Positions 9,434 to 37,428 of a stretch of DNA of 64,000 nucleotides are shown here, piece by piece. The stretch is from Bacillota bacterium (GTDB lineage Bacteria > Bacillota > Negativicutes > CTSoil-072). The position numbers and the translations under genes are program-made. A model generated the notes under the pieces. The model worked only from the letters and a program-made list of their open reading frames with translations. It did no database searches and was not told the origin of the DNA. The first letter of the stretch is position 1, and every line of letters begins with the position of its first letter. Where the stretch lies: positions 17,247 through 81,246 of the forward strand of contig JAGFZV010000011.1 in assembly GCA_017889545.1 (NCBI GenBank), in the 5' to 3' direction.

Positions 9434-9437
9434 GCAT

Positions 9438-10445
9438 TTATCCAAGTTCACGGGCAATCTGTTTCATCCGTTCCCGAATCGGTATATCATACGGGCATCG
9501 TTCTTCGCAAACTCCACATTCGATACAATCGGAAGCCTTGGACGAAAAAGTTGCATATCTTTTCGATATCGCATCTTTCATACCATAACGGGTATATTGC
9601 AAGTGGAAAATGAACGTCGTAGGAATATCGATGCCTACGGCGCATGGCATGCAATAACCGCAGCGACGGCAAAAGTTGGGACCGAGAATTTTTGCTTCCT
9701 GCAAAAGCTCTTGGCGTTCTTGATCCGATAATGGTCTAAATTTTTCTGAGGCCGCTGCATTTTGTTGGATCTGCTCGATTTGATCCATCCCGGGAATAGC
9801 TGTGGAGATATCATGCTCCAGAATAAAACGCAGTGCCAAATCAATCTGTTCAAGCTGTCCGCCGCCTAACGGTTTCATCACAATCCGACCGATATTCATC
9901 GCTTTAGCTAATGGAAACAGTTCTTCCAACGCCTGTTGTTCGATACAGTTAAACGGAACCTGGACCGTACTGAATTCTCCGGTCCGCAGCCCTTCAATCA
10001 GCAGGCTGATCGTATGGCCGGTGATGCCAATATGTCCGATTTTACCGGCTTTTTGCGCTTCCTTCAGAGCTTCCAGCGCACCACCCGGAGCCAAGACAGC
10101 GTCAAGGTCTTCACGGCCCTTAATATTATGGACTTGGTAAAGATCTATATAATTTGTCTTCATCGCAGCAAGACTGAGGTCAATGTCTTTGGCCATTCCT
10201 GCACGATCCCTTGCCATGCTTTTACTGGCTAAAAAATATTCTTTTCGGCGGTCTGCCAGATGGCATCCGATTTTCGCCTCACTATCCGTATAAGCTCGTG
10301 CCGTATCGATGAAGTTAATGCCAGCATCTAAAACGGCGTGCAGCACAACCCCTGCCTCTTCCATATTACAGCGTTGTATTGGCAACCCACCGAAACTAAT
10401 TTCGGTTACCTCTATGCCAGTTTTTCCCAGAAGTCGTTTCTTCAC
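9438..10445 (-). CDS. Aldo/keto reductase with C-terminal 4Fe-4S dicluster
   Basis: GINFIDTARAY, YIDLYQVH, MKPLGGG; CRRCGYCMPC and CIECGVCEERCP; GTG start. Confidence 0.88.
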   Translation of the reverse strand: MKKRLLGKTGIEVTEISFGGLPIQRCNMEEAGVVLHAVLDAGINFIDTARAYTDSEAKIGCHLADRRKEYFLASKSMARDRAGMAKDIDLSLAAMKTNYIDLYQVHNIKGREDLDAVLAPGGALEALKEAQKAGKIGHIGITGHTISLLIEGLRTGEFSTVQVPFNCIEQQALEELFPLAKAMNIGRIVMKPLGGGQLEQIDLALRFILEHDISTAIPGMDQIEQIQQNAAASEKFRPLSDQERQELLQEAKILGPNFCRRCGYCMPCAVGIDIPTTFIFHLQYTRYGMKDAISKRYATFSSKASDCIECGVCEERCPYDIPIRERMKQIARELG

Positions 10446-10564
10446 ACGAATTTCTCCTTTCTCCCGTCGCATCAATTAATAAAAAAGAAGGCCACAAGCG
10501 ATGGGACAGCGGGTAATTTGTTCCATTCTACCATTTCGATTGCAGAACAACGGTTTCCTTCTTC

Positions 10565-11941
10565 TCATCCAAAATAGCGACCCCAAAAATAAGCAAACAA
10601 TATTCCTTCCCCAAAGAGCAGTGAACTATAAACCCAGTTCCACGAAATAGAAATATCCATCGTCCGGCAATTGAGGAACTTGGAAAGCATCAGGACCATG
10701 CCCGCAAAAGGCGATACGATATAGGAAATCGATCCTCCCAATGCCAGGCATAACGCAATGGAAATCGCAGGAATGGGCAGTTGCAAGGAAGTAAGGATAT
10801 GACCAAACATCACAATCGAAATAAAAGGATGAATTCCGATGATCGCACATAGGATCAGCAAAACCGGAATTACTGCTATGGCATAAATTCCTACCGCATT
10901 CGCTCCGGCTTGCAAATACGGCTGAAGCAATGCGAGCAAACCGGATTTTTGCAGGGCTGTTGAAAAAATCCCCATCGATATGAATAATGGCGCTAAATCG
11001 ACCGTTTTTAAAAGATCTTTGTTCCAATAATTCTGTATTGTTTTTGCGAAACCAGGTTGTTTAACAAAAAAGCCGATCCAGAGCAAAACGACAATTGCGC
11101 CGGCAACCATGATTCGATTGGCAGGTGAAGCACCAAAATTAATTTTTTCTAAAAACAGGATGAAAATCAAAAGCCCCAGCACCACAGCCATAACAGGAAC
11201 CGCCTTCTTACTGACGAACGCTGCACTTGCCTGAGATTTGCCAACAGGCTCTTGTGCAAAATTCATTTTATCTGATACGTGATATTTTTTCTCCAGACAG
11301 CAAGAAGTCGCAATGCCGATTATGCTCAAAATCATACTGGGAATAAGGAGTTCACTCCACTTAACCCCAGTTGCTTGAATAACCAGCATCACATTGATTG
11401 CCCCGGGAGCCCATAAAACAACCAGTCCGAAACCGCGTGTGACTGCAGCTGAAATAAACCGTTCATACTGCGATATCCTGCCTTTCAGCGTATCTCCCAA
11501 TAATGAAACCATGACCGGTATAACGCCAAAACTCAAGATACTCGCAAGGATGTGGCTAACGATGGTAGCGAAAAGAAAAAGCGCATTTTCTCCTGTAAAC
11601 GATTTGGTTAACCAATTTCGCACTGCCAAGTGAACATTACCCAATTGAATGGGAATCGAGTATAATTGCATGATAGCCAATATTGAGATAAGACTTGTCA
11701 TAGAAACGACTGCAGCGATCCATACCGATGACGGCTGCTGAAAAAAAAGCAGCAACCCTATACCGAGAAATAAAAACACGATCGTAATTTTTTTAAACCC
11801 TTTGCCCATCAGGGGGAGACTCGAGAAGAGCACGGTAACGGCAGCAGCAAAAACGGCTGGAGTTAAATCAATTGGTATAAGCGGCATAAAGAATTGCAAT
11901 GCAGCTAAAGACAATATGGAAATTTTACAAAAATAATACAT
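10565..11941 (-). CDS. Polytopic membrane protein, probable transporter
   Basis: 458 aa, about 12 hydrophobic segments, RBS ggaggagagg; family not recognised. Confidence 0.7.
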   Translation of the reverse strand: MYYFCKISILSLAALQFFMPLIPIDLTPAVFAAAVTVLFSSLPLMGKGFKKITIVFLFLGIGLLLFFQQPSSVWIAAVVSMTSLISILAIMQLYSIPIQLGNVHLAVRNWLTKSFTGENALFLFATIVSHILASILSFGVIPVMVSLLGDTLKGRISQYERFISAAVTRGFGLVVLWAPGAINVMLVIQATGVKWSELLIPSMILSIIGIATSCCLEKKYHVSDKMNFAQEPVGKSQASAAFVSKKAVPVMAVVLGLLIFILFLEKINFGASPANRIMVAGAIVVLLWIGFFVKQPGFAKTIQNYWNKDLLKTVDLAPLFISMGIFSTALQKSGLLALLQPYLQAGANAVGIYAIAVIPVLLILCAIIGIHPFISIVMFGHILTSLQLPIPAISIALCLALGGSISYIVSPFAGMVLMLSKFLNCRTMDISISWNWVYSSLLFGEGILFAYFWGRYFG

Positions 11942-12010: not shown

Positions 12011-14191
12011 TCATGCGCGTGACACACGACAAGGCAAACCGTTATACGCAGAGGTCCCGATCAACGGATCCGCTGTTTCATAGTCGGCATTCGTTAAAAT
12101 GTTGGCGTTGGCAATCCATAGCCCGCCCAAACTGGGTTCAGCCGCTTCCATTTCCGGATACCACCAGCCATATTCCACGCTGATTACCTGATCACACATC
12201 GCAGTAATTTTTACAACAAAGCGGGCTTTCCCTCGCTCCGTTTCGACCCATACCGGACACCCGTCCTCCAACCCCAAGCGGGAGGCCGTACCGGCGCTCA
12301 TTTCCGCCCAAGCTTCAGGGTGAATGGCTCTGAGTGTATCAAACTGGCGAAAACTCGATGCATAATAAGGTTGAAACCGTGCGCCTGTTATCAGTCGCAA
12401 AGGGAAATCCTGCTGCTCTGCAAGCGGAATTTTCGGTACCGGCAAAGGATCATAACCAATCTCTGAAAAAAGTTCGCTGTACAATTCTATTTTCCCGCTG
12501 ATCGTAGCAAAGCCAATCGGTTCTCCGGTCTGCGGATTTATTTGCGCGTATTTTTGATGATCTTCCGGCGGACAATACAGTCCCGTGTCGCAAAAATCAT
12601 TCCAAGTAAAGCCGGTAGGAGCCAATGTCGCTTCCAGGCTGGCAACAAGGCTTTCCCATGGCCACTCGGTTTCTTGTCCAAGACGCAATCCCAGTTCCCG
12701 CCAAAAATCGTAATCAGTCCGACGCTCATAATAGGGTTTAACCGCCTGTCCGCCGCCATAGGCGATATTCGCCGTCCCGGCCTTGGTTTCAAACAACGGG
12801 CGCTCCAAGGCGCCGGCGCTGGGCAAAACATAATCCGCCAGCATAGAAGTTGGCGTTTGGAACAATTCCAAGACGACCAGCAAGTCCAAACTCTTTAATG
12901 CTTCATAGATCAGCTTCGTATCGGCTTGGGTCAACAATGGGTTGGTTGCCATAACAACCAGCGATCGCACCGGATAAGGTTTGTTGGTTACCATTGCTTT
13001 CCAAACCAAGTTCGGTTGCGCAGACGTCAAATACCGCATCGGCAGCCGTTTCCCATGCTGAAGAGTCAACTGCCGAACCCGTTCATACCCTGAATAGGAT
13101 TGCAACGCTAATTCGTTCAGTTGCTTTTGGCGTGCTTCTTGCGGAAACTGCTCACTCAACTCCAAGTCCAGTTCCGGAATGAAGTCCGGCATCTCGTTTA
13201 GATGGGAAGCGCCGGGCAAATCCACGTTGCCGGTAATCGCCTTTAAGATCGCCAACGCATGATGGGTTGGAACACTGTCACAGCCAATTTGATCAATGCC
13301 CCGCCCCGAAAACAAAGTCGCCGGGGCGCTTTGCGCATACAATCGCGCCGCTTGGACAATTACGCCTGCTTCAATGCCGGTAATTTTTTCTACATATTTA
13401 GGGGTGTAAGAAGCGACATGTTCGATCAAACGCTCAAACCCATGGCACCAGTTTTTTACAAACTCGGCATTATACAGCCGTTCCGTAATGATGACGTGCA
13501 ACAATCCAAGCGCTAAAACACTATCCGTTCCCGGCCGCACCGGCAGCCAGAGAGTGGCCAATTCCGCAGTTCGCGTTCGCCTTGGATCCACCACAATGAT
13601 CGGCTTGCCCGTCTTCCTAAACCGTACCACTTCTCGCCATAACAAGGAATTATCCGACTCTGACGGATTTACACCCCAGAACATTGCACAGGTTGTATTC
13701 TCTGTGTCCAACTCACTTTCCATTGGCCAGCCAAAAATCAACGTATTGAGCCAAATCCCTGGGTTCCAACAGATCTGGCCAATTCCCATATTGTTTGGAC
13801 TGCCAAACAGGTTCATAAAGCGATGTAATGGCCAATAAACAGCATGAGGCCCTCCGATGCAGGTCGCCAGCATCTCCGGCCCATACCGTTCCTTAAGGGA
13901 CTGCATTTTTTCGGCAATTTCATCCATTGCCTGCTCCCAAGTAATTTGCTGCCATTGTCCGCTGCCGCGTTCGCCTACCCGTTTCAGCGGGTAATTAACC
14001 CGCTTGGGGTGGTCAATAAATTCCGGCGCTAAACGCCATCGATAACAGCCGCGTTGAATACTTTCGTCGCCGGGATATTGAGTAGGATCCGGGTGAACTG
14101 CTTTAACTTGTCCGTTTTCAGTCACTGCCATTAATCCGCACTGATAACCGCAAAAACGACAGTTCGTTTTAAGAAGTTGTTCTTCTGCCAT
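12011..14191 (-). CDS. Molybdopterin oxidoreductase catalytic subunit (DMSO reductase family, acetylene-hydratase-like clade), paralog B
   Basis: CRFCGYQC...C cluster motif, RFMNLFGSPN, GQICWNP (Cys ligand), DPRRT, ADYVLP, GWWYPE; no Tat signal. Confidence 0.88.
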   Translation of the reverse strand: MAEEQLLKTNCRFCGYQCGLMAVTENGQVKAVHPDPTQYPGDESIQRGCYRWRLAPEFIDHPKRVNYPLKRVGERGSGQWQQITWEQAMDEIAEKMQSLKERYGPEMLATCIGGPHAVYWPLHRFMNLFGSPNNMGIGQICWNPGIWLNTLIFGWPMESELDTENTTCAMFWGVNPSESDNSLLWREVVRFRKTGKPIIVVDPRRTRTAELATLWLPVRPGTDSVLALGLLHVIITERLYNAEFVKNWCHGFERLIEHVASYTPKYVEKITGIEAGVIVQAARLYAQSAPATLFSGRGIDQIGCDSVPTHHALAILKAITGNVDLPGASHLNEMPDFIPELDLELSEQFPQEARQKQLNELALQSYSGYERVRQLTLQHGKRLPMRYLTSAQPNLVWKAMVTNKPYPVRSLVVMATNPLLTQADTKLIYEALKSLDLLVVLELFQTPTSMLADYVLPSAGALERPLFETKAGTANIAYGGGQAVKPYYERRTDYDFWRELGLRLGQETEWPWESLVASLEATLAPTGFTWNDFCDTGLYCPPEDHQKYAQINPQTGEPIGFATISGKIELYSELFSEIGYDPLPVPKIPLAEQQDFPLRLITGARFQPYYASSFRQFDTLRAIHPEAWAEMSAGTASRLGLEDGCPVWVETERGKARFVVKITAMCDQVISVEYGWWYPEMEAAEPSLGGLWIANANILTNADYETADPLIGTSAYNGLPCRVSRA

Positions 14192-14211: not shown

Positions 14212-15513
14212 TTACTTGCTCTTCCTTTTCCCATCAATATCAGTCAATTGGAACACACAAAATGGAACAATATGGCCGTCCGGCCCTGTAACCGTCATAC
14301 TGCATTCTCTAAGTTTTTTTAGATCAAAATTCATCGCATCCATAAAATTCATCATAACAATCGACAAGCCTGGCTCCAATTCCGGAAACATTTTGTCGGC
14401 AAGATCAGGAAACACCGACCCTTGCGGGCTGTCCGAATCAAAATTATTAATATATTCTTGAGGAGTGATCATGGAAGTTAACGGCTTAATCACGCCTTGA
14501 TCCTCAATAAGGTATGTAGCCGCATCACATAGCGGATGCGAACAGCCCAGAGGCCAAAAGTCGTAAGGCTTCAAAATTCCATTGCTCTGTTCCGCCAGCA
14601 TAAACGCCACATTGCCAATTGTTAAACGTTGTTCCGGAACAACATCAAACCGGCCGGATCCAAACGCCGGCTGGTAAGCAATACCCGCAATCACATCCCG
14701 ATTTTTCAATGCAAATTCCAAGACGGCGCCCATTTGGTCATCGTTGATCCCTGAGATCACCGTCATGGCAAGAACGACCTGAACACCGGCTGCTCGGCAG
14801 TTTTCAATCGCCTGTAATTTCATCGGCAGTATATCCGCGCCACGGATTGTCTGATAAACCTCATTGGTCATACCGTCAAACTGCAGATAAACTCCACTGA
14901 TCCCGGCTTCTCTCAACCGCGCCAAATAAGCTGGGTCCTGCGCGATTACCATTCCGTTAGTATTGATTTCAATCGCTATAAAACCAATTTGTCTTCCCAA
15001 TGCGACAATTTCCGGTAAGTCTTGCCGGGTTGTAGGTTCTCCGCCCGTCAATTGAATACTGGTTAACGGACCGGTTTTCGCTAAAATGTCTTTATACATC
15101 GCTTCAAAAACCGCCATGTCCGGATCCGGCGGGGCGGATGCCTGTACTTCGCCTGCTGCCATAAAACAAACCGGACAACGCAAATTACACTTTTGTGTCG
15201 TTTCAAACTCAACTAAAGTAGGATGCCTCAAATGCGCTGAACATAACCCGCAATCCTGGGGACAGCCTTGCAGAGAAGGAGTAGGCTGCGATGGCCGAAC
15301 GTACGGGAATTGGAAACCTTTCATCCATTGATAGTGGTCGACATCCGGCCACAGATAGGCTGTAAACGGTCCATGCTCCGGACATGTTTTTTCCATGTAC
15401 ACAGCTTTGCCTTTAGTAACGATTTCTGCTTCAATAACATTCAGGCAGACCGGGCAAACGCTTTTCGTCGTGTCCAGGACATCATTTTTCACAGTATTTT
15501 CAGCTGATTGCAT
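14212..15513 (-). CDS. Radical SAM protein, MJ0619/Tes-like family
   Basis: CPVC..CPEHG, CPQDCGLCSAH, CNLRCPVC SAM motif, GGEP, C-terminal REC...IVPFC. Confidence 0.8.
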   Translation of the reverse strand: MQSAENTVKNDVLDTTKSVCPVCLNVIEAEIVTKGKAVYMEKTCPEHGPFTAYLWPDVDHYQWMKGFQFPYVRPSQPTPSLQGCPQDCGLCSAHLRHPTLVEFETTQKCNLRCPVCFMAAGEVQASAPPDPDMAVFEAMYKDILAKTGPLTSIQLTGGEPTTRQDLPEIVALGRQIGFIAIEINTNGMVIAQDPAYLARLREAGISGVYLQFDGMTNEVYQTIRGADILPMKLQAIENCRAAGVQVVLAMTVISGINDDQMGAVLEFALKNRDVIAGIAYQPAFGSGRFDVVPEQRLTIGNVAFMLAEQSNGILKPYDFWPLGCSHPLCDAATYLIEDQGVIKPLTSMITPQEYINNFDSDSPQGSVFPDLADKMFPELEPGLSIVMMNFMDAMNFDLKKLRECSMTVTGPDGHIVPFCVFQLTDIDGKRKSK

Positions 15514-15579
15514 AACCTAATCTCCTAACCTAATCAATGCTCATATTTTATAATCGCATATTTTTTATTCATTATTCAC

Positions 15580-15626
15580 ACGACCTGTTTATCCCCGTCC
15601 TTTTGGTACGGGGATAAACAGGCCGT
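15580..15626. other. Long intra-operon hairpin
   Basis: cctgtttatccccgt / acggggataaacagg, 15-bp perfect stem, no U-tract. Confidence 0.7.
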
Positions 15627-15645
15627 AGTGAATATTCGACAACCC

Positions 15646-16569
15646 TTATTTATTCCATGCTTTAAGGAACGCTTCATTCCCCTTCGGCAATCTGGAACGA
15701 TATTTTTGTTCGCCCGGGAACCAGGTACGGTCTTCACCGCCACGAACAACCAGCATACGCATCAGAGCGCCGCCCAACAGCACTAACGCTGCGCCGACTG
15801 CCTGGAGGCTTGGTGAAGACGACAAGGATAACACTAACGGCGCCAAGGTCCCGAATAACAGGAACCCATATTGGAAGCTAGAGGAAAGATCCCCATTGAT
15901 CCATCGTTGCGTGGCAATTGATTCCGACGTAGTGCCACCGCTTTTCTTCACCCAAATATAGCCAAACCACAACAGCAGTTGAAAAGCCAGTAATCCAGCC
16001 GTGAACTTGGGGAACATTCCCAAAACATCAGTCAGTGTAGACGGCGGGAAAACAAAACCAGCTAAGCTGTGCGCTGCAAAACCGGTAACCAGTGAAGAAA
16101 GCAAAAACAGGATCATAATCCCAGGTCCATGCCAGAACGGACGGCCTTTATGGCGTCCCAGCAAAATGCCAGGGTAAGTAGCTACTACTAAACCAGTGAT
16201 GAAACAAAGGGCCGCCAGAACTTTACGAGCGAATACCCAACTGCTCCAGAAAAACATATCGAGACCAAACGTAGCATACACGAGACCAAACGTAATCGCA
16301 AAGGACATAAACCAAGCGCCGGCAGTCAGGATCGCCTTCGGATTCACAAATACCCGCAAGGCCTGAAACGGACGGCCCAACTCCAAAATCAGCAGGGATG
16401 ATCCGATGCCGATGAATACCGGTCCAAGCACATTCCCAAGCAGAGAGGTTCTTCCCTCGCCGACAAACAAATCCAAGAGCCCAACAATAACAAGCATTCC
16501 GCCGCCCATTCCCGCAAAGAAGAAATCGACAGCCAACATCCAGCCCCAAACATCATGCTTTTGACTCAT
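15646..16569 (-). CDS. NrfD/PsrC-type membrane anchor subunit
   Basis: WGWMLAVDFFFAGMGGG, LILELGRP, YPGILL, about 8 TM helices. Confidence 0.88.
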   Translation of the reverse strand: MSQKHDVWGWMLAVDFFFAGMGGGMLVIVGLLDLFVGEGRTSLLGNVLGPVFIGIGSSLLILELGRPFQALRVFVNPKAILTAGAWFMSFAITFGLVYATFGLDMFFWSSWVFARKVLAALCFITGLVVATYPGILLGRHKGRPFWHGPGIMILFLLSSLVTGFAAHSLAGFVFPPSTLTDVLGMFPKFTAGLLAFQLLLWFGYIWVKKSGGTTSESIATQRWINGDLSSSFQYGFLLFGTLAPLVLSLSSSPSLQAVGAALVLLGGALMRMLVVRGGEDRTWFPGEQKYRSRLPKGNEAFLKAWNK

Positions 16570-17129
16570 CAGAGCTTCACCTCCGAATCGACAATATAAA
16601 ACACGTACGGTTCCGTGTTCAGTTCTCCCAATAAGCGTACTGGGTAGCCATTGTTTACCAATTTGTAAACCTCACTGGTAGGATCATCCATATCGCCAAA
16701 AATACGCGCCTTTTGGTGACAGGTCTTTACGCAATGCGGCAGCTTGCCTTCATCAACCCGGTCCATACAGAAATTACATTTCTGTATCGTTCCCTTTTCA
16801 TGATTGGGGACCCGCGCTCCATACGGACAAGCCATAACACAAGCTTTACAGCTGATACATTTTTTTTCTTCGACGAAAACAATTCCATCCGGACGCTGTT
16901 GAGACGCGCCGGTAGGACAAGCATCCACACAAGGCGAATTATCGCAATGCATGCATATGAGAGGCAGGTTCGTCATACGAACGTTAGGAAAAACTCCGGT
17001 AGGTCCAACCGTTACTACTGGATTATAGATCATGTCCAGAGGCAATTCATTGTGCACTCTGCAAGCAACCGTGCACGAATGGCATCCGACACACCGCCGC
17101 GTATCCATAACCATTGCATAGCGTGCCAT
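16569..17129 (-). CDS. 4Fe-4S dicluster electron-transfer subunit (DmsB/PsrB-like)
   Basis: CVGCHSCTVAC, CMHCDNSPCVDACP, CISCKACVMACP, KCNFC...CVKTC. Confidence 0.92.
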   Translation of the reverse strand: MARYAMVMDTRRCVGCHSCTVACRVHNELPLDMIYNPVVTVGPTGVFPNVRMTNLPLICMHCDNSPCVDACPTGASQQRPDGIVFVEEKKCISCKACVMACPYGARVPNHEKGTIQKCNFCMDRVDEGKLPHCVKTCHQKARIFGDMDDPTSEVYKLVNNGYPVRLLGELNTEPYVFYIVDSEVKL

Positions 17130-17130
17130 C

Positions 17131-19371
17131 TTATTTCGCCTCCTTTTCATTCTCTGCCGTTACTTTATATACTTTGCATAATAAGCCACGGTTCGCCCAA
17201 GAGCCGCTCATAGGATCACAATCATCATCATCACAACTGGTCAAAATATTCGTGTTTGATTCCAAACAACCGCCCAGTTCCGGATCACGCATATCGCGTT
17301 CCGGGTACCACCAGCCACGCGGGGTGAAAATGACACGCGGGTCAATGGCTTGCGTCAAATTGGCTTTTTGCTTGATCCGGCCGCGCTTGGTTTCAATCCA
17401 AACCCAATCGCCCTCTTCAATCGACAATTTGGCTGCTGCCGCCGGGTTCATGCTCATGTAAGGCTCGTGGCTGAGGAACCGCAATGTCTTAATTTGGAAA
17501 TGTTCGGAATGATGGTATGGCATGTGACCGCCGCCGGTGGTCAGCACAAACGGATATTCCGCCGCAATTTCCGGATCATCTGTTTCATTTTCTGCCGGCC
17601 CGATGTATGGCGGAAGAGGCGGATAGCCTAATGCTTCCAGCGTGCTGGAATATAACTCCACTTTTCTCGAAGGAGTGGCAAACCCAATTCGCTTGTATTT
17701 CTGATATTCACGTTCTGGAAAATGGAAACGGTGGTTTTCAACAAATTCATCGTAACTTTCCACCCCGTAGCCCAGCGGTTCAATTTTAGCAAAATAAGCG
17801 TCTTCTACGGTTTCCCACGGCCACATTTCCTTTTGTCCCAGCTTGACACCTAAATCGCGCCAGAAATTATAATCGTTGCGGCGTTCATACATTGGCTGGA
17901 TGGCCCGTTGCGATGCCAGCAAAAAGTCAGCACACCCGTAGGAACTGGTAATTGTCGGCCGTTCCAGCGCGCCGGCAATCGGCAACACGTAATCCGAAAG
18001 CATTGCTGTCGGAGTCAGCCAATATTCACAGGTAACCATGAACTCAACAGCCTTCAACGCTGCCAATGTCAGTTTCGTTTCACCATAAGAATTGATCGGA
18101 TTGGTGGCCGAAACCAAAAGCGCTTTGACCGGATATGGTTTTTCCGTCAGGATCGCCCGGAATACAGATGGCGGATGGGCTTCACACATCCACTCGGCGG
18201 TCGGAGCTTTTCCCCACACTTCTTTCGTCAATTCAGCGATGCGGCTATAGCCCGGCCAGGTAACCATTTTAAATTTATCGGAACCAATTTGTTTGGCTTT
18301 CTGCTCTTCCGGCAACTGGTCATTCGCTTCCATTTCTTCGTCCGTGACATACTCAAGACTGGGACCGGTCAAAAGGTCAGAACCAGGAACATCCAAATTA
18401 CCGGTAATCGCGCGCAATAAAGCACGTGCGTGCATCGCTGCTCCGGCCGGTTTGCCGATTTGGTCAATGGACGTACCCCATTGAATATTTCCCGGCTTAT
18501 TGGAAGCATACATGATCGCACTTTCACGGATCTGCTCTTCGGTCAGCCAAGTCAGCGGCGCTGCCCACTCCGGTGAAAAGTCCGCAACATGTTCTGCCAA
18601 TTCACCAAACCCAACGCACCATTCGTCCGTAAATTCCGGATCGAACAGTCCTTCATAAATGATGACATGCAGCCAAGCCAGCGCCAGTGCCAAGTCCGAT
18701 CCAGGACGAATCGGCAGCCACATATCCGCTTTGGCGGCTGTTTCTGAATAACGAGGATCTATAACGATCAGTTTGAGGCCTTTTTCTTTTAATTCCATAA
18801 TATGATGTATTTCCGGCATGCCGGAAACGCCCGGATTTTGCCCCCACAAAACCAGACAGCGGCTGCTGCCCAAGTCCAAGTCAAACGGGCACCATCCGTA
18901 GATCGCCGTTTCTACCATGAATGTAGGAATCCAGCACAGATGAGAGTTGTGAAATCCATTGGGGCTGCCAAACAAGTTCATAAATCTCCGGCGGGCCCAG
19001 TCGTCTGTTCGCTGAGTTCCGCCAGCCGTAGCAACAGCCTCTGCACCAAATTCATCACGAATATTGGCAAGCTTCTCGGCAATTTCCGTCAACGCCTGAT
19101 CCCAAGAAATTTCTTGCCATTGTCCGGCACCGCGTTCACCAACCCGTTTCAACGGAAAATTTACCCGCGCCGGATGGTCAAGATGGTCCATGGCAATATT
19201 TCCCCGGCAGCACAATCCGCCCTGATTAGTAGGAAAATCAGGATCTCCCTCGATATCAAGGACTTTGCCGTCTTTTACATAAGCCAGTACCCCACAATTC
19301 TGGTGGCAAAAGTAACAGGCGGATTTTTTCACTTGAATACCTTCTTGTTGTAAATCAATATTCTTGCTCAT
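17131..19371 (-). CDS. Molybdopterin oxidoreductase catalytic subunit, paralog A
   Basis: CYFCHQNC...C, RRFMNLFGSPN, HLCWIP (Cys ligand), HHSEH, GWWYPE; RBS gggagg; no Tat signal; start at ATG 19371. Confidence 0.9.
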   Translation of the reverse strand: MSKNIDLQQEGIQVKKSACYFCHQNCGVLAYVKDGKVLDIEGDPDFPTNQGGLCCRGNIAMDHLDHPARVNFPLKRVGERGAGQWQEISWDQALTEIAEKLANIRDEFGAEAVATAGGTQRTDDWARRRFMNLFGSPNGFHNSHLCWIPTFMVETAIYGWCPFDLDLGSSRCLVLWGQNPGVSGMPEIHHIMELKEKGLKLIVIDPRYSETAAKADMWLPIRPGSDLALALAWLHVIIYEGLFDPEFTDEWCVGFGELAEHVADFSPEWAAPLTWLTEEQIRESAIMYASNKPGNIQWGTSIDQIGKPAGAAMHARALLRAITGNLDVPGSDLLTGPSLEYVTDEEMEANDQLPEEQKAKQIGSDKFKMVTWPGYSRIAELTKEVWGKAPTAEWMCEAHPPSVFRAILTEKPYPVKALLVSATNPINSYGETKLTLAALKAVEFMVTCEYWLTPTAMLSDYVLPIAGALERPTITSSYGCADFLLASQRAIQPMYERRNDYNFWRDLGVKLGQKEMWPWETVEDAYFAKIEPLGYGVESYDEFVENHRFHFPEREYQKYKRIGFATPSRKVELYSSTLEALGYPPLPPYIGPAENETDDPEIAAEYPFVLTTGGGHMPYHHSEHFQIKTLRFLSHEPYMSMNPAAAAKLSIEEGDWVWIETKRGRIKQKANLTQAIDPRVIFTPRGWWYPERDMRDPELGGCLESNTNILTSCDDDDCDPMSGSWANRGLLCKVYKVTAENEKEAK

Positions 19372-19503
19372 GTTGCCTCCCTTCAGGCGTTCCCAGATTA
19401 CCAATTTTCTTTCCAAAGCTTGACTATCCCGACTTGCCAATGCAAGTTATAGCTTTTCGCCCGGACCTCAATTCGGTTGTTCGCGTCGCCTGAACCTTAT
19501 TCA

Positions 19504-19520
19504 TGCAATAAACGTGCCAG
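19504..19520 (-). promoter_or_regulatory. sigma54 -24/-12 promoter
   Basis: CTGGCACGTTTATTGCA, matches TGGCACG-N4-TTGC. Confidence 0.9.
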
Positions 19521-19897: not shown

Positions 19898-22057
19898 TTA
19901 ATATTCAATATTATATTCTTTTAATTTTCTGTACAGAGTGGACCGGCTGATTCCCAATATTTCAGCTGCAACCGGCACACAGTTGTTCGCATGCAGCAAC
20001 GCCGTTTCTATCGCAGCCTTCTCCAGCTTCTCCAAACAAAGCATCTCACCGATTGCCTCACTGCTCGTCGCCGACATCCCATCGATTTTGATCGGGCAAG
20101 TAGCCAAGAGAATATAGCTGGGAAGATTATCCGGTTTGATGATTCCATCCAAAGAAGTATTCACCGTATAAATCATTGCGTTTTGCAGCTGCCGGGCATT
20201 GCCCGGCCATTCATATTCATTAATTTTCTTTTGCGCCGCTGAACTGATCTGCGGAACTTTCCAGCCTTTTTTCTGACAGTAATTTTCAATAAAAAACTTG
20301 CTTAAATTTTCGATGTCACTGCCCCGGTCACGCAACGGAGGTATATTTACCGGCAATACCGCCAGACGGAAGAATAAGTCTTCACGAAATTGATTTTCTG
20401 TTACCATTTTGTACAAATTTTTATTTGTAGCGGTAACCAGCCTAAAATCAACTTTCTTATAGCGCCGGCCCCCTAAGCGCATTACCTGCTTGTCCTCTAA
20501 CGTTCTGAGCAAAACAGCTTGCAATTCGATCGGCATATCGCCAATTTCATCAAGAAAAAGCGTGCCGCCATGCGCTAACTCGATTTTACCAGGTCTGCCG
20601 CTGCGTTCAGCACCGGTAAAACTGCCGCCTTCATAACCAAACATTTCACTTTCGATCAATTCTCGCGGCATAGCGGCACAGTTTACTGCGACAAAAGGTC
20701 CCTGTGGACGATGAACATTATGAATAGCTTGTGCAAAAAGTTCTTTCCCGGTTCCGCTTTCGCCAATCAAGAGAATGTTTTCTCCCGATCCAGCAAAACG
20801 CCGCGCCATTGCTATGCTTTTTTTAAATTCCGAGTTTTCGCCGACAATGTTTTCAAATGTATTACTCGCCACCCCGCCGGCTTTGGTGTTCAATTGAGCA
20901 GTTATTTTTTCGGAAGAATTGAACTTAAAGACGACAATATCTAATTTCTGCGTATACGGATTAAAAGCCGGACGAATGCAAATTTGGTAAAGCTGCCGGT
21001 CGCTGCCCGCGCAAACGAATTCCTCAACAGTGAGATTTTCCCCTTTCTCAGCCAAGGTCATAATAGAAGAATCACTGCTCAGAAAATCATTAATATTTCT
21101 GCTATCCATTTCTTCCGTCCTGAGCCTCAAAATCCGCATGCCTTCTTGATTGATATGAATTATTTTCCCCGTGCGATTGGTAACAACAATCCCTTCATCG
21201 ACCAAGGTCAAAGTAGTATTCAATGTATTGTGAACCGTTGCAAACCGATCCATCGCAATCTGAAGATGACAATTGAACGTTTCTGCTTTTTCACTCGCAT
21301 CACAAAAATCATTCGTCGCTTTAACGAGCTTAAAATGAGTCTCGATGGCGATCGCCAGCGAAGTAACGAGCCCTAAACTATGCAGGCACAGATTTTCCAG
21401 AATTTCTTCTCCCGGCGGTTCCAACAATGGTTGATTCAACAATACCAGCGCTGCATTGATTTCTCCATTCTCATCGCGAATTGGCGCCGCAGAAGCAACA
21501 CAGTTCTGAAAAGCTACGCAGTAATGTTCCGGTCCCAGCAATTGCACAGGACGGCCCAGTCGAATGCACAATTCATGGGCTGTAGTTCCTTCCGAGTTTT
21601 CATCGGCAATGATCCCCATTCGAGGATGATTTTCAGGAAACAGATGAGTTTTTTCCCAGCAGCCTTCATTCAGCAAAACGACTCCGGTCTTATCAAATAA
21701 ATATAAAATATCTCCGCAAGACAGCAGCATATCTTTAAACGTTTCAACCATCGAATTCGTGACCTTAATCAACAAATGATGTTTTCCCAGAATTTCAGAT
21801 AATTTTTCGGGGTTCATGTTTGAGGATGTCACTACCGAATAAGGATTGACTCCCATATTGCGGGATCGAACCCACGAAGCGGCAACATCCTGATTCATGA
21901 AAGGGTATTGACATGGGTCTTCCGCATTATTTTGCAAGAAATCCTGCTTATATCGCAGGATGGCTTGCCAGCGTTCTTGGGCATGTGTTTTTCTTGTATT
22001 CGCTGCAGTGTTATTTTGTTCATGAATGATTTCAGGAGACTGGTTTAATATGCCCAC
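19898..22057 (-). CDS. sigma54-dependent transcriptional activator (GAF-PAS-AAA+-HTH, AcoR-like)
   Basis: GESGTGKELFA, GSFTGA loop, GTLFLDEIGD, WPGNARQL, C-terminal LGISRSTLYRKL. Confidence 0.95.
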   Translation of the reverse strand: MGILNQSPEIIHEQNNTAANTRKTHAQERWQAILRYKQDFLQNNAEDPCQYPFMNQDVAASWVRSRNMGVNPYSVVTSSNMNPEKLSEILGKHHLLIKVTNSMVETFKDMLLSCGDILYLFDKTGVVLLNEGCWEKTHLFPENHPRMGIIADENSEGTTAHELCIRLGRPVQLLGPEHYCVAFQNCVASAAPIRDENGEINAALVLLNQPLLEPPGEEILENLCLHSLGLVTSLAIAIETHFKLVKATNDFCDASEKAETFNCHLQIAMDRFATVHNTLNTTLTLVDEGIVVTNRTGKIIHINQEGMRILRLRTEEMDSRNINDFLSSDSSIMTLAEKGENLTVEEFVCAGSDRQLYQICIRPAFNPYTQKLDIVVFKFNSSEKITAQLNTKAGGVASNTFENIVGENSEFKKSIAMARRFAGSGENILLIGESGTGKELFAQAIHNVHRPQGPFVAVNCAAMPRELIESEMFGYEGGSFTGAERSGRPGKIELAHGGTLFLDEIGDMPIELQAVLLRTLEDKQVMRLGGRRYKKVDFRLVTATNKNLYKMVTENQFREDLFFRLAVLPVNIPPLRDRGSDIENLSKFFIENYCQKKGWKVPQISSAAQKKINEYEWPGNARQLQNAMIYTVNTSLDGIIKPDNLPSYILLATCPIKIDGMSATSSEAIGEMLCLEKLEKAAIETALLHANNCVPVAAEILGISRSTLYRKLKEYNIEY

Positions 22058-23821: not shown

Positions 23822-24652
23822 TCAATTTCCCGGAACCTGAGCAGCCGACTCAATGCCCATTTCCCGCAGAATTCTTATCGTTCTTTTCGGCGCCACGACT
23901 TTAGGATCATAGCGTTCCGCCAACTGCAGGGTATTCATTACCGGGATAAATCCGCCCAAATCTTCAGGGATGTCAATATCCGGCACCATCTCAATCAGAC
24001 TGATCGGGATCGTTTTTTCTACCGCCTTTTGCACTACCAAGTCCAGAACGGTACCGCCTTCCATATTATAAAAAATCTCCTCAAAATTAAAAGGCGTAGT
24101 GCACGTATAACCAATAATATTGAAACCGCCAGCCTGATCGGCAGATTCAACAATTGCAGCGCCAATACCCAAACCAAAGCGATCGCACTGTTTGGCGCAT
24201 TCGAGGGCTTTTTTGCTCGCCGCCAATTCTTCCAACTTTTTCACAGCGTCCGCAATGGTCGCAGGCTGCAGCCCCGGCATATCCCCGCCAACAATGAAAA
24301 CACTGTCCGCCAATCGTTCCGGGCCCCCGTCCTGCAGTATATAATCAGCCGCATATTGCATAGCTGCATCAAAACAACCCCCTTGATCCGGGAAAATTCC
24401 TTTGATCGCTTCCGGGGCAGAAATTGTCGCAATAATTTGTTCCAGATAACACCGGTCTCCTGAGTGATTATAACAGATATATACATCACAGCAAGCCGAT
24501 GCAATGCACTGGTCTACCACGTCTAAGAGGGAGGCTTCATAGAACTGTTTCGCTTCTTCAGGCGTGAATATCCCCCCACGGTCTATTGTCAGCCTGGTTT
24601 TGGTTTCACCCGCTTTAGGCACTTTCGTAAAAATAACAACCGCATTTCGCAT
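23822..24652 (-). CDS. DUF2064/TIGR04282-like (CofC-fold) nucleotidyltransferase, copy 2
   Basis: FTKVPKAGETKTRL, IVGGDMP, GGF, DIDIPEDL. Confidence 0.75.
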   Translation of the reverse strand: MRNAVVIFTKVPKAGETKTRLTIDRGGIFTPEEAKQFYEASLLDVVDQCIASACCDVYICYNHSGDRCYLEQIIATISAPEAIKGIFPDQGGCFDAAMQYAADYILQDGGPERLADSVFIVGGDMPGLQPATIADAVKKLEELAASKKALECAKQCDRFGLGIGAAIVESADQAGGFNIIGYTCTTPFNFEEIFYNMEGGTVLDLVVQKAVEKTIPISLIEMVPDIDIPEDLGGFIPVMNTLQLAERYDPKVVAPKRTIRILREMGIESAAQVPGN

Positions 24653-24694
24653 CCAATATCATCTCCAGCTTACTTATAACGTTGTCTTCAAACT

Positions 24695-25285
24695 CTAATC
24701 CTGTGCAGTTTTTTCTTGTTTCGCGATTTCATAGTCTGCCGGCGAATTCAAATTGGCAAAAATTTTCTCCATGGTTGCCTGCGGAAAAAATCTCTCCACT
24801 TCAAGATAACCGACACGAACCTGGGGAAAGATATCCAGCGGGCATGTGTACCCATCTTCCAGCAAACGCCGGATGACAGGCAAGCAGGCCTCCTTTGAAA
24901 GCCATGTGCAAAGCGGTTCATTCCCCTCAGAATGAACCGGAAGCACCACATCAAATTTCTTACTGTTCGCCACGAGCACCATTTCCTCAAGCACCCGCAC
25001 CGGCAGTGTCGGCATGTCGCAAGGCAATATCAGCGCACTATCGAACGATGCCTCTTCCAATCCGGCATGCAAGCCGGCCAAAGGTCCTTTGCCAACGTAG
25101 CGGTCTTGCGTCCACCGAACTTCCCTTTCTAATGGCCGCTGCGGCCCCACCACGATCACTTCCTTGCAGAACAAACGCAGCTTATCTACCGCTTCCGTCA
25201 GCAAAGTGCCTGATTTCCAGGGAAGTTCCGCTTTATCCTTGCCCATGCGGCGGCTGCGGCCGCCAGCTAATACAATACCCGTCAT
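24695..25285 (-). CDS. mobA: Molybdenum cofactor guanylyltransferase
   Basis: GIVLAGGRSRRMGKDKA, GPLAGL, PCDMP, NLNSPAD. Confidence 0.92.
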   Translation of the reverse strand: MTGIVLAGGRSRRMGKDKAELPWKSGTLLTEAVDKLRLFCKEVIVVGPQRPLEREVRWTQDRYVGKGPLAGLHAGLEEASFDSALILPCDMPTLPVRVLEEMVLVANSKKFDVVLPVHSEGNEPLCTWLSKEACLPVIRRLLEDGYTCPLDIFPQVRVGYLEVERFFPQATMEKIFANLNSPADYEIAKQEKTAQD

Positions 25286-25306
25286 GATTTGCACCTCTGC
25301 AATCAA

Positions 25307-25741
25307 TTAATCGACAATCTCTATTTCATCACCCGGTTTTACCCAGCCAGGAATGAGCACTTTGGCAAAAATACCTTCTCTGGGCATAACACAGTCACCG
25401 GTTTTTTGCCTGATCGCACATCCACTGTGACATTCTTTCCCAATCTGGGTTACTTCCATCAACGACTCGCCGATCTTGAGTTTCGTTCCAATCGGAAGCT
25501 CAAACAGAATAATCCCGTCTGTCGTTATATTCTCAGCGAAACTTCCTGTTGCCAAATCAGCCAGCCCTTTTTGTTTCATCTTATTCACGCTTTCCATTCC
25601 CAGCAAGCTTACTTGCCTATGCCAGGCCCCGGCATGCGCATCACCTTTTAATCCGCAGTCTATTTCAAAATACCCTTTTTCAATCGTATCTTTGGGTACT
25701 CCTTTTGTCTCACTAATATTGATCGCTGCGACTTTTGCCAT
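25307..25741 (-). CDS. MOSC domain protein
   Basis: GDAHAGAWHRQVSLL, FAENITT, TQIGKECH, CVMPREGIF. Confidence 0.9.
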   Translation of the reverse strand: MAKVAAINISETKGVPKDTIEKGYFEIDCGLKGDAHAGAWHRQVSLLGMESVNKMKQKGLADLATGSFAENITTDGIILFELPIGTKLKIGESLMEVTQIGKECHSGCAIRQKTGDCVMPREGIFAKVLIPGWVKPGDEIEIVD

Positions 25742-25778
25742 GTTTCCGCCTCCTAATCAAGCTCATCCGTTGCTCTAT

Positions 25779-26276
25779 TCATTTCACCAGAAATTTGTTG
25801 ACAATGAACTCCGAAATCTTTTCATAATCATCCAACTGAAACGAAGGAACTGCAAAAGAGTCTTCTGTGACATCAGTGACAACTGCAATTAATTCATTGG
25901 CGGGTGATACCGCCCGGGTTCCTTTTTCTTTCCGTACAACCTCTATCTTTTGCTTGCCTGCCAGTTTGAAACCTTCTACCAGCGCGATATCAATTCCTTC
26001 CATCGATGCAACAATTTCATCAAGATCTTTTTTTTGGTTTGTCTCCTGAATCAAAGCATACTGGTTCGGGCCGACAATCGCAACCGCTTTGGCTCCGGCT
26101 TGCCCAAAACGCCAAGAGTCCTTGCCCGGAATATCAATTGCAAAGCCGTGTGCATCACTTTTAACAGCTCCTACTTTATAGCCTCGGCGAACAATTTCGC
26201 CAATCAACTTTTCCGTCAGTGTGGTTTTCCCCGTATTTGAAACAGCAGATACAATACAAACAATTGGCGTGCTCAC
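25779..26276 (-). CDS. mobB: Molybdopterin-guanine dinucleotide biosynthesis protein B
   Basis: SNTGKTTL, KSDAHGF.ID.PGKDSWR, LVEGFK. Confidence 0.9.
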   Translation of the reverse strand: MSTPIVCIVSAVSNTGKTTLTEKLIGEIVRRGYKVGAVKSDAHGFAIDIPGKDSWRFGQAGAKAVAIVGPNQYALIQETNQKKDLDEIVASMEGIDIALVEGFKLAGKQKIEVVRKEKGTRAVSPANELIAVVTDVTEDSFAVPSFQLDDYEKISEFIVNKFLVK

Positions 26277-26306
26277 TATATACCCCCTATTTGAATATCG
26301 ATTTGG

Positions 26307-26792
26307 TTAGCCGGCATTTCTGATCACATGTCCGCTTTTTCCACCTGATTTTTCCATCAGTTTAATATCCGTAATTTCCATCCACCGGTCAATCGCTTTG
26401 CTCATGTCATAGATCGTCATGGCCGCAATACCGGCTCCGCTGATCGCTTCCATTTCCACACCGGTTTTGCCGGTAGTTTTAACCTGGCATTGGATCGTTA
26501 TGCTGGAATTTTGGTCGTCCATTTGAAATGAGATATCGACGGAAGTCAGTATCAGCGGATGACACATGGGGATCAGCTGTGACGTCTGTTTTGCGGCCAT
26601 AATTCCTGCGACCTGCGCCACACTTAAGACATCCCCTTTTTTAATGCCGCCGCTCTTGATGGTCGCCAGCGTAGATGGCTGCATACGAACAGTAGCTTGC
26701 GCAACAGCGATCCGTTCGCTGTCCTGCTTACCGCCAACATCTACCATTCGCGCATGACCTGTTTCATTAAAATGTGTAAAGTCCATTGTCAT
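26307..26792 (-). CDS. moaC: Cyclic pyranopterin monophosphate synthase
   Basis: ARMVDV, AGIMAAKQT, LIPMCHPL, TGVEMEA. Confidence 0.96.
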   Translation of the reverse strand: MTMDFTHFNETGHARMVDVGGKQDSERIAVAQATVRMQPSTLATIKSGGIKKGDVLSVAQVAGIMAAKQTSQLIPMCHPLILTSVDISFQMDDQNSSITIQCQVKTTGKTGVEMEAISGAGIAAMTIYDMSKAIDRWMEITDIKLMEKSGGKSGHVIRNAG

Positions 26793-27769
26793 CCCCCAAT
26801 CTGATACATTTTGCGCTCATTGCCAACGCCCCAGCCCTCGTCCATGTGATGACGAGCGGGTTTTTTCTTGATTGCTTCGCCAAAAAGCCGCACAAGTTCT
26901 TCGTCGTTTGCATCATTTTCCAATGCTAGCTTTAAATTAACTTCCCCTTTATCAAATAAACAACCTCGCAATTTGCCATCTGCCGTCATGCGAATGCGGT
27001 TGCACTCAGAACAAAAATGATTGCTCATCGCACTAATAAAACCAATTGTTCCCATGCCGCCTTTGATTTGGTAAGACTTCGCCGGTCCATTGCCTTTCAG
27101 CATGGAACTTTTCAGCAGTTCATACCGCGATTCAACAGTTTGTTTTATTTCCGACATGCTGACCAGGCGCTCTTTTTTGTAAAATGGCAGATCGCCAATC
27201 GGCATAAATTCAATAAATCGTACATTTAAAGGCATTTCATACGCTAGTTTGACAAAATCCAAAATTTCATCGTCATTAAAATCTTTCATAACAACCGTAT
27301 TGATTTTTACCGGGGCGATTCCTAACTTAAGGGCTTTTTCTATGGCGCGAGTCACATCATGCAAATTACCCCGTCGCGTAATGTAGCGGAACTTTTCCGG
27401 AACAAAAGTATCCAAGCTGAAATTCACTCTTTTTAAACCGGCTGCTTTCAGATCTTCTGCCATCCCATCAAACAACATGCCGTTTGTCGTAATGGCAATA
27501 TCCTCGATTTGCGGGATTTCGGCCACCTCTGCAATAAGTTTGACGATATCTTTGCGGACCAATGGCTCACCGCCGGTAAATCTCACTTTGCGAATTCCGA
27601 CCTTGGTAGATACCTTTACAAGACGGGCAATTTGTTCCAGCGTCAAGATATTTGAATGGCCTTCATCTGCGATTCCTTCTTCCGGCATGCAATATCTGCA
27701 CCGCAAATTACACCGGTCCGTAACAGAGACTCTCAAATACTCTATTTTACGATCATAGCTGTCCAACAT
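26789..27769 (-). CDS. moaA: GTP 3',8-cyclase
   Basis: SVTDRCNLRCRYC, FCSECNRIR, C-terminal MYQIGG. Confidence 0.97.
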   Translation of the reverse strand: MLDSYDRKIEYLRVSVTDRCNLRCRYCMPEEGIADEGHSNILTLEQIARLVKVSTKVGIRKVRFTGGEPLVRKDIVKLIAEVAEIPQIEDIAITTNGMLFDGMAEDLKAAGLKRVNFSLDTFVPEKFRYITRRGNLHDVTRAIEKALKLGIAPVKINTVVMKDFNDDEILDFVKLAYEMPLNVRFIEFMPIGDLPFYKKERLVSMSEIKQTVESRYELLKSSMLKGNGPAKSYQIKGGMGTIGFISAMSNHFCSECNRIRMTADGKLRGCLFDKGEVNLKLALENDANDEELVRLFGEAIKKKPARHHMDEGWGVGNERKMYQIGG

Positions 27770-27816
27770 GAAGTACTCACCCTCTCTCCATAGCAATTAT
27801 TCCCACTCGTTTCGCC

Positions 27817-29055: not shown

Positions 29056-29064
29056 GTTTCCCTC

Positions 29065-30087: not shown

Positions 30088-30185
30088 GCTATAATCTCCT
30101 TTCCATTTTGGCACATCTTACACCAGCAAAAATAAAAACTTCTGTGCAGAACGCGCACAGAAGTTTCATTGAAAACTTATGAGAC

Positions 30186-32560: not shown

Positions 32561-32574
32561 AATTCTTCGTCCTT

Positions 32575-33678: not shown

Positions 33679-33716
33679 TGTTATTCGTCTTTTCCTTTGA
33701 TGTTTTCTTTTCAGGT

Positions 33717-34625: not shown

Positions 34626-34642
34626 TGCAAGCTCCGTGCCAA
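34626..34642 (-). promoter_or_regulatory. sigma54 -24/-12 promoter
   Basis: TTGGCACGGAGCTTGCA. Confidence 0.88.
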
Positions 34643-36358: not shown

Positions 36359-36418
36359 TCCTTACTCCCATTCTGCCATCCTGCATTATCAGCAACGCAC
36401 GGAAACATTCTTATGATA

Positions 36419-37390: not shown

Positions 37391-37428
37391 TCTTTCCGTT
37401 TCCCTTCAATCCACTGATTTAGAACCGC

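Follow-up and report, generated by a model that had tools for sequence, protein, structure and literature searches.

A tetraether synthase-like radical SAM protein is probably a dedicated component of a conserved bacterial molybdenum/tungsten enzyme system

Introduction

Why would a gene resembling the archaeal tetraether synthase (Tes) be encoded between the subunits of a molybdenum enzyme? The question is raised by a 64,000-nt stretch of DNA from a Bacillota bacterium (Negativicutes; CTSoil-072; assembly GCA_017889545.1, contig JAGFZV010000011.1, positions 17,247-81,246), the whole of which is called the window here. A first-pass annotation of its sequence had placed a 433-aa Tes-like radical S-adenosylmethionine (SAM) enzyme at 14212-15513; the open reading frame (ORF) lies exactly there, on the minus strand, and is referred to below as rSAM. 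It is embedded, as had been noted, between the genes of a molybdenum enzyme system. Upstream are MoA, a molybdenum/tungsten bis(pyranopterin guanine dinucleotide) (Mo/W-bisPGD) enzyme of the acetylene hydratase (AH) clade, a ferredoxin subunit (FeS) and a membrane subunit of the NrfD type; downstream is MoB, a second Mo/W-bisPGD enzyme of the same clade.

We suggest that rSAM is a dedicated component of this Mo-enzyme system and no membrane-lipid synthase (probability about 0.85). The claim that the operon context speaks against lipid synthesis gains support from 80 related loci in five phyla, the genome-level linkage of rSAM to MoA, the separate clade that rSAM forms and the parallel with its sister family TrsS.

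Results

Conservation of the rSAM neighbourhood in five phyla

Scanning 185,579 species genomes for the pattern yielded 218 relatives; the analysis covered the best 80 loci, with identities of 47-86% throughout, and used tblastn and ORF clustering for the neighbourhood survey. These loci span Bacillota, Thermodesulfobacteriota (Geobacter, Desulfuromonadia and Syntrophia), Chloroflexota, Acidobacteriota and Actinomycetota (Coriobacteriia, including Gordonibacter, Raoultibacter and Eggerthellaceae). We detected a recurring set of MoA, FeS, NrfD, MoB, DUF2064, CCG-domain and DUF169 (or DUF169-ferredoxin) proteins, a PhnP-like metallo-beta-lactamase (MBL)-fold protein, a GNAT protein with a Cys-rich tail and a protein resembling flavin reductases; proteins of the FmdE-like and MOSC types are rarer.

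Thirty-five of the 80 loci have at least 8 kb on both sides of rSAM. All 35 contain an AH-clade enzyme, which is a MoA orthologue (at least 58% identity) in 32; FeS is present in 33, NrfD in 31, MoB in 28, GNAT in 24, MBL in 22, CCG in 20, DUF2064 in 19 and DUF169 in 16. Over all 80 loci, a MoB orthologue (at least 44% identity) was detected in 60, and lipid-biosynthesis genes do not recur as neighbours. The tblastn counts for MoaA are probably cross-matches to the radical SAM core and were excluded from use, and three recurring ORF-cluster families (f16, f24 and f30) that look like antisense shadow ORFs were set aside.

The gene order differs between the phyla. It is NrfD-rSAM-MoB in 17-18 of the 20 Bacillota loci, CCG-rSAM-MoB in Chloroflexota (CCG directly 5' of rSAM in 10 of 11 loci) and MoB-DUF2064-rSAM-DUF169-GNAT in Coriobacteriia, where DUF2064 is directly upstream in 27 of the 33 Actinomycetota loci. 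A Mo-enzyme gene directly follows rSAM in 18/20 Bacillota and 10/11 Chloroflexota loci. That the members stay the same while their order is shuffled speaks for functional coupling, and against inherited synteny as the only cause. The family thus defined is widespread, occurring in five phyla and in no fewer than 80 species-level genomes, and has one fixed enzymatic partner.

Linkage of rSAM to MoA at the genome level

In 11 genomes rSAM has no MoA within 10 kb, and a MoA orthologue (62-78% identical) is encoded elsewhere in 10 of them. An even sample of 401 Bacillota genomes contained the rSAM clade in five, all five having a MoA of at least 73% identity. Seven other Bacillota genomes of the sample (G011, G116, G143, G242, G269, G305 and G372) encode MoA-like enzymes of only 52-57% identity and no rSAM, suggesting that the rSAM partnership is specific to the narrow MoA orthologue group. 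This 52-57% sister group occurs as tandem pairs in some genomes.

Large AH-clade repertoires were observed in three Coriobacteriales genomes (G402, G408 and G409, of loci L056, L071 and L080). Each encodes 20-25 AH-clade paralogues (about 32-40% identical to MoA). MoA orthologues (63-66%) number just one or two per genome, and there is a single Tes-like radical SAM protein.

The rSAM gene and protein

The rSAM protein matches the Pfam families Zn_ribbon_HMPTM (PF23545; residues 12-55, E 1.7e-20, 72.7 bits) and Radical_SAM (PF04055; residues 104-268, E 5e-23, 82.4 bits), both above the gathering score, and the CX3CX2C, GGE and N-terminal CxxC...CxxH motifs that go with membership are invariant. 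Its closest solved structure by sequence is the archaeal tetraether synthase GDGT-MAS/MJ0619 (7TOL; E 2.8e-80, about 30% identity). Modelled with AlphaFold2 from 19 orthologues (pLDDT 82.6, pTM 0.86), rSAM aligns with 7TOL and 7TOM over the full length (TMq 0.82); the runner-up, MoaA, reaches 0.47-0.49.

All the Tes-type motifs that the first-pass annotation had listed are present, and their invariance was judged over 19-32 orthologues. The rubredoxin-type site (C20xxC23...C44xxH47), the N-terminal cluster motif (C84PxDC88GxC91xxH94), the radical SAM cluster motif (C109x3C113x2C116) with GGEPT at 157-161, and the C-terminal cluster cysteines C329, C404 and C419 (C404...P417F418C419) are all invariant. 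The sole non-invariant ligand is M388, the equivalent of the labile Met439 of GDGT-MAS, which is Glu in 4 of 32 sequences. The rSAM clade has an additional invariant Cys324.

The C-terminal part is shorter than in the Tes clade: the segment 282-329 has 47 residues versus 69 and the segment 329-388 has 59 versus 94.5, about 57 fewer in total. From the conserved ligands and the shorter segments, rSAM appears to have kept the radical machinery of Tes with a trimmed C-terminal, substrate-side domain. Pfam and NCBIfam scans detected neither a SPASM domain nor a recognition element for RiPPs, i.e. ribosomally made peptides with post-translational modifications, in rSAM, and there are no fusion proteins inside the clade among the top 120 matches (lengths 421-460 aa).

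The gene has its own AGGAG ribosome-binding site. Its stop codon ends at 14212 and MoB starts at 14191, which agrees with the 20-nt distance first reported; this spacer has a GGGG Shine-Dalgarno-like stretch. The 132-nt spacer between NrfD and rSAM contains a predicted RNA hairpin (Table 1), which may be an mRNA processing or stability element setting different levels of the upstream and downstream genes.

rSAM belongs to neither Tes nor TrsS

The first-pass reading of rSAM as Tes-like is right as to resemblance, in domains, sequence and fold; this resemblance does not extend to membership. In the NCBIfam ranking TrsS (NF045646) is first, with 393.4 bits in two stretches (346 bits in a six-frame search), and Tes (NF045702) is second with 336.4 bits. 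The curated whole-protein cut-offs are 490 and 450 bits, respectively, so rSAM is a member of neither family.

The wider homologue search covered 1.84 billion representatives. At 50% identity the rSAM orthologue group collapses, and beyond it the nearest full-length relatives reach no more than about 35-45% identity. In a phylogeny of 164 sequences, for which FastTree was the sole method, 31 orthologues and one representative form a monophyletic rSAM clade (support 100, stem 0.71), MJ0619 is placed in a different group of 21 sequences, and the TrsS superclade (86 sequences, support 100) excludes rSAM. The metal ligands of GDGT-MAS are conserved in all three clades. On this sequence evidence the rSAM clade is a separate bacterial branch sharing common ancestry with the archaeal tetraether synthase. 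Our literature search found no paper describing this clade and no functional data on it.

The sister family TrsS also accompanies a molybdoenzyme

TrsS, an uncharacterized family of radical SAM (seleno)proteins, was reportedly named by Haft and Tolstoy in 2025. Genuine, above-cut-off TrsS is encoded in 27 of the 401 Bacillota genomes, and we rebuilt the neighbourhoods of 15 such loci (L122-L136, Bacillota only). Thirteen of these loci have TrsS within a conserved cluster of the DVU_1551-1559 type, with a molybdopterin aldehyde oxidoreductase of the xanthine-oxidase family (NF045668), the flavo/dicluster protein NF045663, a DVU_1556-family methyltransferase, a C-GCAxxG-C-C protein, a DVU_1553-family AMP-ligase, an XdhC-family maturation factor and a DVU_1551-family nucleoside triphosphate (NTP) transferase. 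The second-best match of the latter is the molybdenum cofactor (Moco) cytidylyltransferase MocA. Metagenomic protein predictions include fusions of TrsS to three of these neighbours: to the DVU_1551 NTP transferase (with or without an HD domain) in four representatives, to the DVU_1556 methyltransferase in two, and to the DVU_1553 ligase in one, in the orders NTP transferase::TrsS, methyltransferase::TrsS and TrsS::ligase (P0126, P0138, P0146, P0151, P0185, P0199 and P0239).

The rSAM clade does not have this neighbourhood. TrsS-cluster neighbours sought in the 80 loci and the window gave matches only to a MoCF341-like protein (8 sequences) and the methyltransferase (1). The two systems have other features in common. 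Most TrsS/aldehyde-oxidoreductase clusters encode a MoCF_biosynth protein that is 45-49% identical to the window protein MoCF349 (Table 1), making MoCF349 a candidate for a cofactor-handling component shared by both systems. With both clades come an NTP-transferase-fold protein and an Fe-S protein of the CCG type; a further parallel, looser and unaligned, is a phosphohydrolase (MBL with rSAM, possibly the HD domain with TrsS). Since two sister clades pair with two structurally unrelated Mo-enzyme families, we suggest that their common denominator is the pyranopterin cofactor.

Organization of the window

The features of the window are collected in Table 1. The minus-strand order is MoA, FeS, NrfD, rSAM, MoB, a 458-aa membrane protein and an aldo-keto reductase/ferredoxin fusion. 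The last two were rejected as members of the system, occurring in 0-2 of the 80 loci. No internal sigma-70 promoter or intrinsic terminator was detected above chance in 9300-19700.

The stop codons of two MoA orthologues align to residues 20-21 of the TTG-started MoA ORF, so the true start is probably the ATG at 19374 (MSKNIDLQ...), 18 residues ahead of the first cluster cysteine. A selenocysteine ligand, considered because of the in-frame TGA in these two orthologues, was rejected, as the TGA lies upstream of the real start. MoA begun at this ATG has no Tat motif, and none was seen by eye in any subunit of MoA-FeS-NrfD or in MoB.

Four perfect TGGCAC-N5-TTGC sigma-54 promoters are on the minus strand, and at least three of them are directly 5' of operon starts (MoA, the DUF2064 gene labelled DUF2064b, and a third Mo enzyme). 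The window looks like one sigma-54-controlled island. Its second sigma-54 operon (34547 down to 23822) carries the accessory genes together with moaA, moaC, moeA, mobA, mobB and a MOSC gene.

An ABC importer group headed by an ArsS-family radical SAM gene lies directly upstream of this second operon; ArsS is absent from all 80 loci and was rejected as a member of the system. The third AH-clade Mo enzyme has an aromatic-acid/H+ symporter gene downstream, and divergent third AH-clade paralogues follow MoB in several related loci.

Table 1. Features of the 64,000-nt window discussed in the text (positions are those of the window).
Feature	Position	Strand	Remarks
458-aa membrane protein and aldo-keto reductase with ferredoxin domain	9438..11941	-	same orientation, downstream of MoB
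MoB, soluble AH-clade Mo/W-bisPGD enzyme	12011..14191	-	726 aa; best solved relative 2E7Z, E 1e-110
rSAM, Tes/GDGT-MAS/TrsS superfamily	14212..15513	-	433 aa, ATG start; predicted rubredoxin-type Fe site, N-terminal [4Fe-4S], radical SAM [4Fe-4S], C-terminal [4Fe-4S] with Met388
RNA hairpin in NrfD-rSAM spacer	15569..15639	-	-45.9 kcal/mol, z -11.1; A-rich tail, no U-tail
NrfD/PsrC-type membrane quinone-binding subunit	15646..16569	-	307 aa; domain scan
FeS, four-cluster ferredoxin	16569..17150	-	193 aa, no Tat leader; domain scan
MoA, AH-clade Mo/W-bisPGD catalytic subunit	17131..19440	-	TTG-started ORF; best solved relative 2E7Z, E 5e-133
sigma-54 promoter TGGCACGTTTATTGC upstream of MoA	19505..19519	-	perfect match
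sigma-54 enhancer-binding regulator with PAS domain	19898..22057	-	counterpart in 15 related loci
Rest of accessory sigma-54 operon: MoCF349, MoeA, MoaA, MoaC, MobB, MOSC, MobA, second DUF2064	23822..30114	-	second DUF2064 at 23822-24652
MoCF349, MoCF_biosynth-domain protein	29065..30114	-	349 aa, Cys-rich C-terminus; counterpart in TrsS clusters
PhnP-like MBL-fold phosphodiesterase	30313..31107	-	see text for occurrence
GNAT acetyltransferase, Cys-rich C-terminal tail	31097..31579	-	see text for occurrence
DUF169-ferredoxin fusion	31598..32578	-	37 loci
CCG-domain/dicluster Fe-S protein	32575..33741	-	matches C-terminal half of NF045663 (TrsS clusters), E 1e-41
DUF2064, GT-A/nucleotidyltransferase fold	33717..34547	-	weak TIGR04282 match; first gene after promoter 34627-34641; family co-conserved with rSAM
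sigma-54 promoter	34627..34641	-	perfect match
ArsS-family radical SAM heading ABC importer	34819..38379	-	TIGR04167, 406 bits versus cut-off 300; NMT1/THI5-type binding protein
Aromatic-acid/H+ symporter	39502..40872		downstream of third Mo enzyme
sigma-54 promoter	41543..41557	-	perfect match
Third AH-clade Mo enzyme	43640..45907	-	755 aa; own sigma-54 promoter
sigma-54 promoter	46118..46132	-	perfect match

Discussion

Function of rSAM

The system would consist of a cytoplasm-facing, quinone-linked MoA-FeS-NrfD complex and the soluble paralogue MoB under sigma-54 control. The ligand conservation suggests that rSAM would generate a 5'-deoxyadenosyl radical that abstracts a hydrogen from an unactivated carbon, and that the C-terminal cluster would then be used, as in Tes, to form a new bond. 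About 57 C-terminal residues being missing, the substrate is probably smaller and less lipid-like than that of Tes. The target is most likely the pyranopterin cofactor, a cofactor precursor, or the apo-enzyme of MoB or MoA.

The first-pass annotation had named two options: maturation of a cofactor or enzyme, and radical chemistry on the substrate of the pathway. We favour maturation or tailoring of the cofactor or the enzyme, a post-translational variant included, and put it at roughly even odds, because of the parallels and fusions of TrsS and the apparent co-transcription of the accessory genes with Moco biosynthesis. If it is true, rSAM catalyzes a new step in Mo/W cofactor or enzyme biogenesis, with a bearing on the heterologous production of AH-clade enzymes, including relatives of the gut catechol dehydroxylases.

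Several observations weigh against this assignment. Judged from sequence, the genomic context does not separate maturation from substrate chemistry. In Bacillota rSAM is inside the structural operon and not in the Moco operon, and TrsS is also fused to a methyltransferase and an AMP-ligase, which a small-molecule pathway would fit equally well. The aldehyde oxidoreductase of Desulfovibrio has an ordinary molybdopterin cytosine dinucleotide cofactor in high-resolution structures. Active acetylene hydratase can be produced in E. coli, which means that such a partner is no general requirement of AH-clade enzymes. The linkage of rSAM itself has a possible exception in two fragmented metagenome-assembled genomes (81% and 93% complete), which have MoA and MoB and in which rSAM was undetected; its expected position is at a contig edge in one of them, and in the other the gap between NrfD and MoB is too short for it.

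The strongest alternative is that rSAM is a pathway enzyme, performing a catabolic or tailoring step on an organic substrate, e.g. a plant-derived aromatic or imported compound, with MoA and MoB hydroxylating, dehydroxylating or hydrating it. The system is apparently inducible, with a PAS-domain sigma-54 enhancer-binding protein and perfect sigma-54 promoters, and related loci contain major facilitator superfamily transporters (some of them of aromatic-acid/H+ symporter types) as well as a TetR regulator and a chemoreceptor. The place of the Bacillota gene in the structural operon, 20 nt from MoB, the AMP-dependent ligase and SAM methyltransferase fused or adjacent to TrsS, and the catechol dehydroxylases found in the MoA/MoB clade (PMC7028382) point the same way. 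However, the sister clades accompany Mo enzymes of two unrelated families (the DMSO-reductase type with rSAM, the xanthine-oxidase type with TrsS), TrsS has a MocA-like Moco nucleotidyltransferase as a fusion partner and is encoded beside an XdhC-like factor, the accessory genes sit with Moco biosynthesis genes, and the clusters of the characterized catechol dehydroxylases do without a radical SAM partner (PMC11887054). We consider this pathway role a strong competitor, less probable than maturation; if true, it would mean that Tes-type C(sp3) radical coupling was recruited into anaerobic catabolism.

A more specific form of the maturation hypothesis is that the bacterial Tes-like clades, rSAM and TrsS, are an undescribed branch of pyranopterin-cofactor biosynthesis, providing particular molybdoenzymes with a modified Mo/W cofactor or a second nucleotide-linked ligand. 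This proposal is speculative, and we regard it as rather improbable in this exact form. The partners would be an NTP-transferase-fold protein (DUF2064, or the MocA-like protein with TrsS), a phosphodiesterase (PhnP-like MBL, possibly the HD domain with TrsS), the CCG Fe-S protein as reductase, and DUF169/GNAT. MJ0619 was originally annotated as a class D pterin methylase, an activity not corroborated by Lloyd et al. (PMC9433317), and the link of rSAM to pterin methylation is circumstantial, via the pterin-dependent neighbour enzymes. Such a cofactor branch, if true, would bring back the abandoned view that MJ0619-type enzymes act on pterins, here for their bacterial relatives, and might explain the failure of some AH-clade enzymes to be made active in E. 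coli.

That rSAM modifies the MoB or MoA protein instead of the cofactor, by a cross-link, methylation or similar, seems unlikely. Other radical SAM enzymes do modify metalloenzymes after translation, and a Mo-enzyme gene, MoB in the window, directly follows rSAM in nearly all Bacillota and Chloroflexota loci. In Actinomycetota, however, the immediate neighbours are DUF2064 and DUF169 and not MoB; the protein lacks the SPASM and RiPP-recognition elements; and the fusion of TrsS to nucleotidyltransferases suggests a partner that is a small molecule.

It is very improbable that rSAM is a bacterial synthase of tetraether or membrane-spanning lipids, e.g. of the branched glycerol dialkyl glycerol tetraether (brGDGT) type, beside Mo-enzyme genes by chance: the full-length fold match to GDGT-MAS, the presence of all its metal ligands including the labile Met, and the proposal of bacterial Tes homologues as brGDGT synthases (PMC8941075) stand against a score of 336 versus 450 bits for Tes, a separate long-stem clade, the loss of about 57 residues from the domain that adjoins both lipid pockets in GDGT-MAS (PMC9433317), Mo-enzyme synteny kept in five phyla with no recurring lipid-biosynthesis neighbours, and predicted sigma-54-inducible, not housekeeping, expression.

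With rSAM as a Mo-enzyme component, it and TrsS mean that a large part of the bacterial sequences counted as 'Tes homologues' belongs with molybdoenzymes instead of lipids. In geochemistry, the producers of brGDGTs and tetraethers are inferred by BLAST to Tes at E < 1e-50 and more than 30% identity (PMC8941075); given its match to GDGT-MAS, rSAM may pass such filters as a false positive.

Comparison with known systems

The best solved homologue of both MoA and MoB is acetylene hydratase (2E7Z), whose N-terminal [4Fe-4S] motif and Cys metal ligand (Cys141 of AH) are kept in both. The two enzymes differ from it at the catalytic Asp13, which in the HMMER alignment is Gly in MoB (motif C-R-F-C-G) and by eye, unaligned, is apparently His in MoA (motif C-Y-F-C-H); with Asp13 replaced, neither is probably an acetylene hydratase.

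The catechol dehydroxylases (Dadh, Cldh and others) are further relatives of MoA and MoB. They have been placed near acetylene hydratase, and the accessory proteins listed for their published clusters are TorD-like and NapGH-like, with no radical SAM protein among them (PMC7028382, PMC11887054). MoA differs from these enzymes and from AH in being wired to FeS and NrfD without a Tat signal. In this respect the system is like the cytoplasm-facing complexes of the SoeABC type, which also have catalytic, ferredoxin and NrfD subunits, none with an export signal; SoeABC has a catalytic subunit of another clade, and neither a radical SAM protein nor a second soluble paralogue.

Other radical SAM proteins, too, are encoded next to a metalloenzyme that is their known or presumed client, namely TIGR04317 (a predicted maturase of a tungsten-cofactor oxidoreductase), MoaA, NifB and HydE/HydG, and MoaA is the second-best match of rSAM in both sequence and fold. 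With these proteins rSAM has the radical SAM core alone in common, as they are without the rubredoxin and N-terminal cluster domains of the Tes type; TIGR04317 is a SPASM protein and scores 51 bits on rSAM.

GDGT-MAS/Tes (MJ0619) has the same domain order and fold, the identical rubredoxin-type spacing CX2CX20CX2H, the N-terminal cluster ligands (C, C, C and H), CX3CX2C, and the C-terminal cysteines with the labile Met. Its ligands and its C-terminal domain, with the [Fe4S4]C cluster, were described by Lloyd et al. (PMC9433317). In contrast, rSAM is only about 30% identical, forms its own clade, is 22 and about 35 residues shorter in its two C-terminal segments, has the extra Cys324, and is a bacterial protein encoded inside apparently inducible Mo-enzyme operons.

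TrsS, the top curated family for rSAM, is also shorter than Tes (median 454 versus 501 aa; 441 in the rSAM clade). Cys239 is common to TrsS and rSAM, and Cys324 mostly so. The molybdoenzyme cluster of TrsS likewise includes an NTP-transferase-fold protein, a CCG/dicluster protein and a MoCF_biosynth-domain protein, and differs in the partner, an aldehyde oxidoreductase of the xanthine-oxidase family with XdhC, the DVU_1556 methyltransferase and the DVU_1553 ligase in place of the MoA-FeS-NrfD/MoB system that accompanies rSAM.

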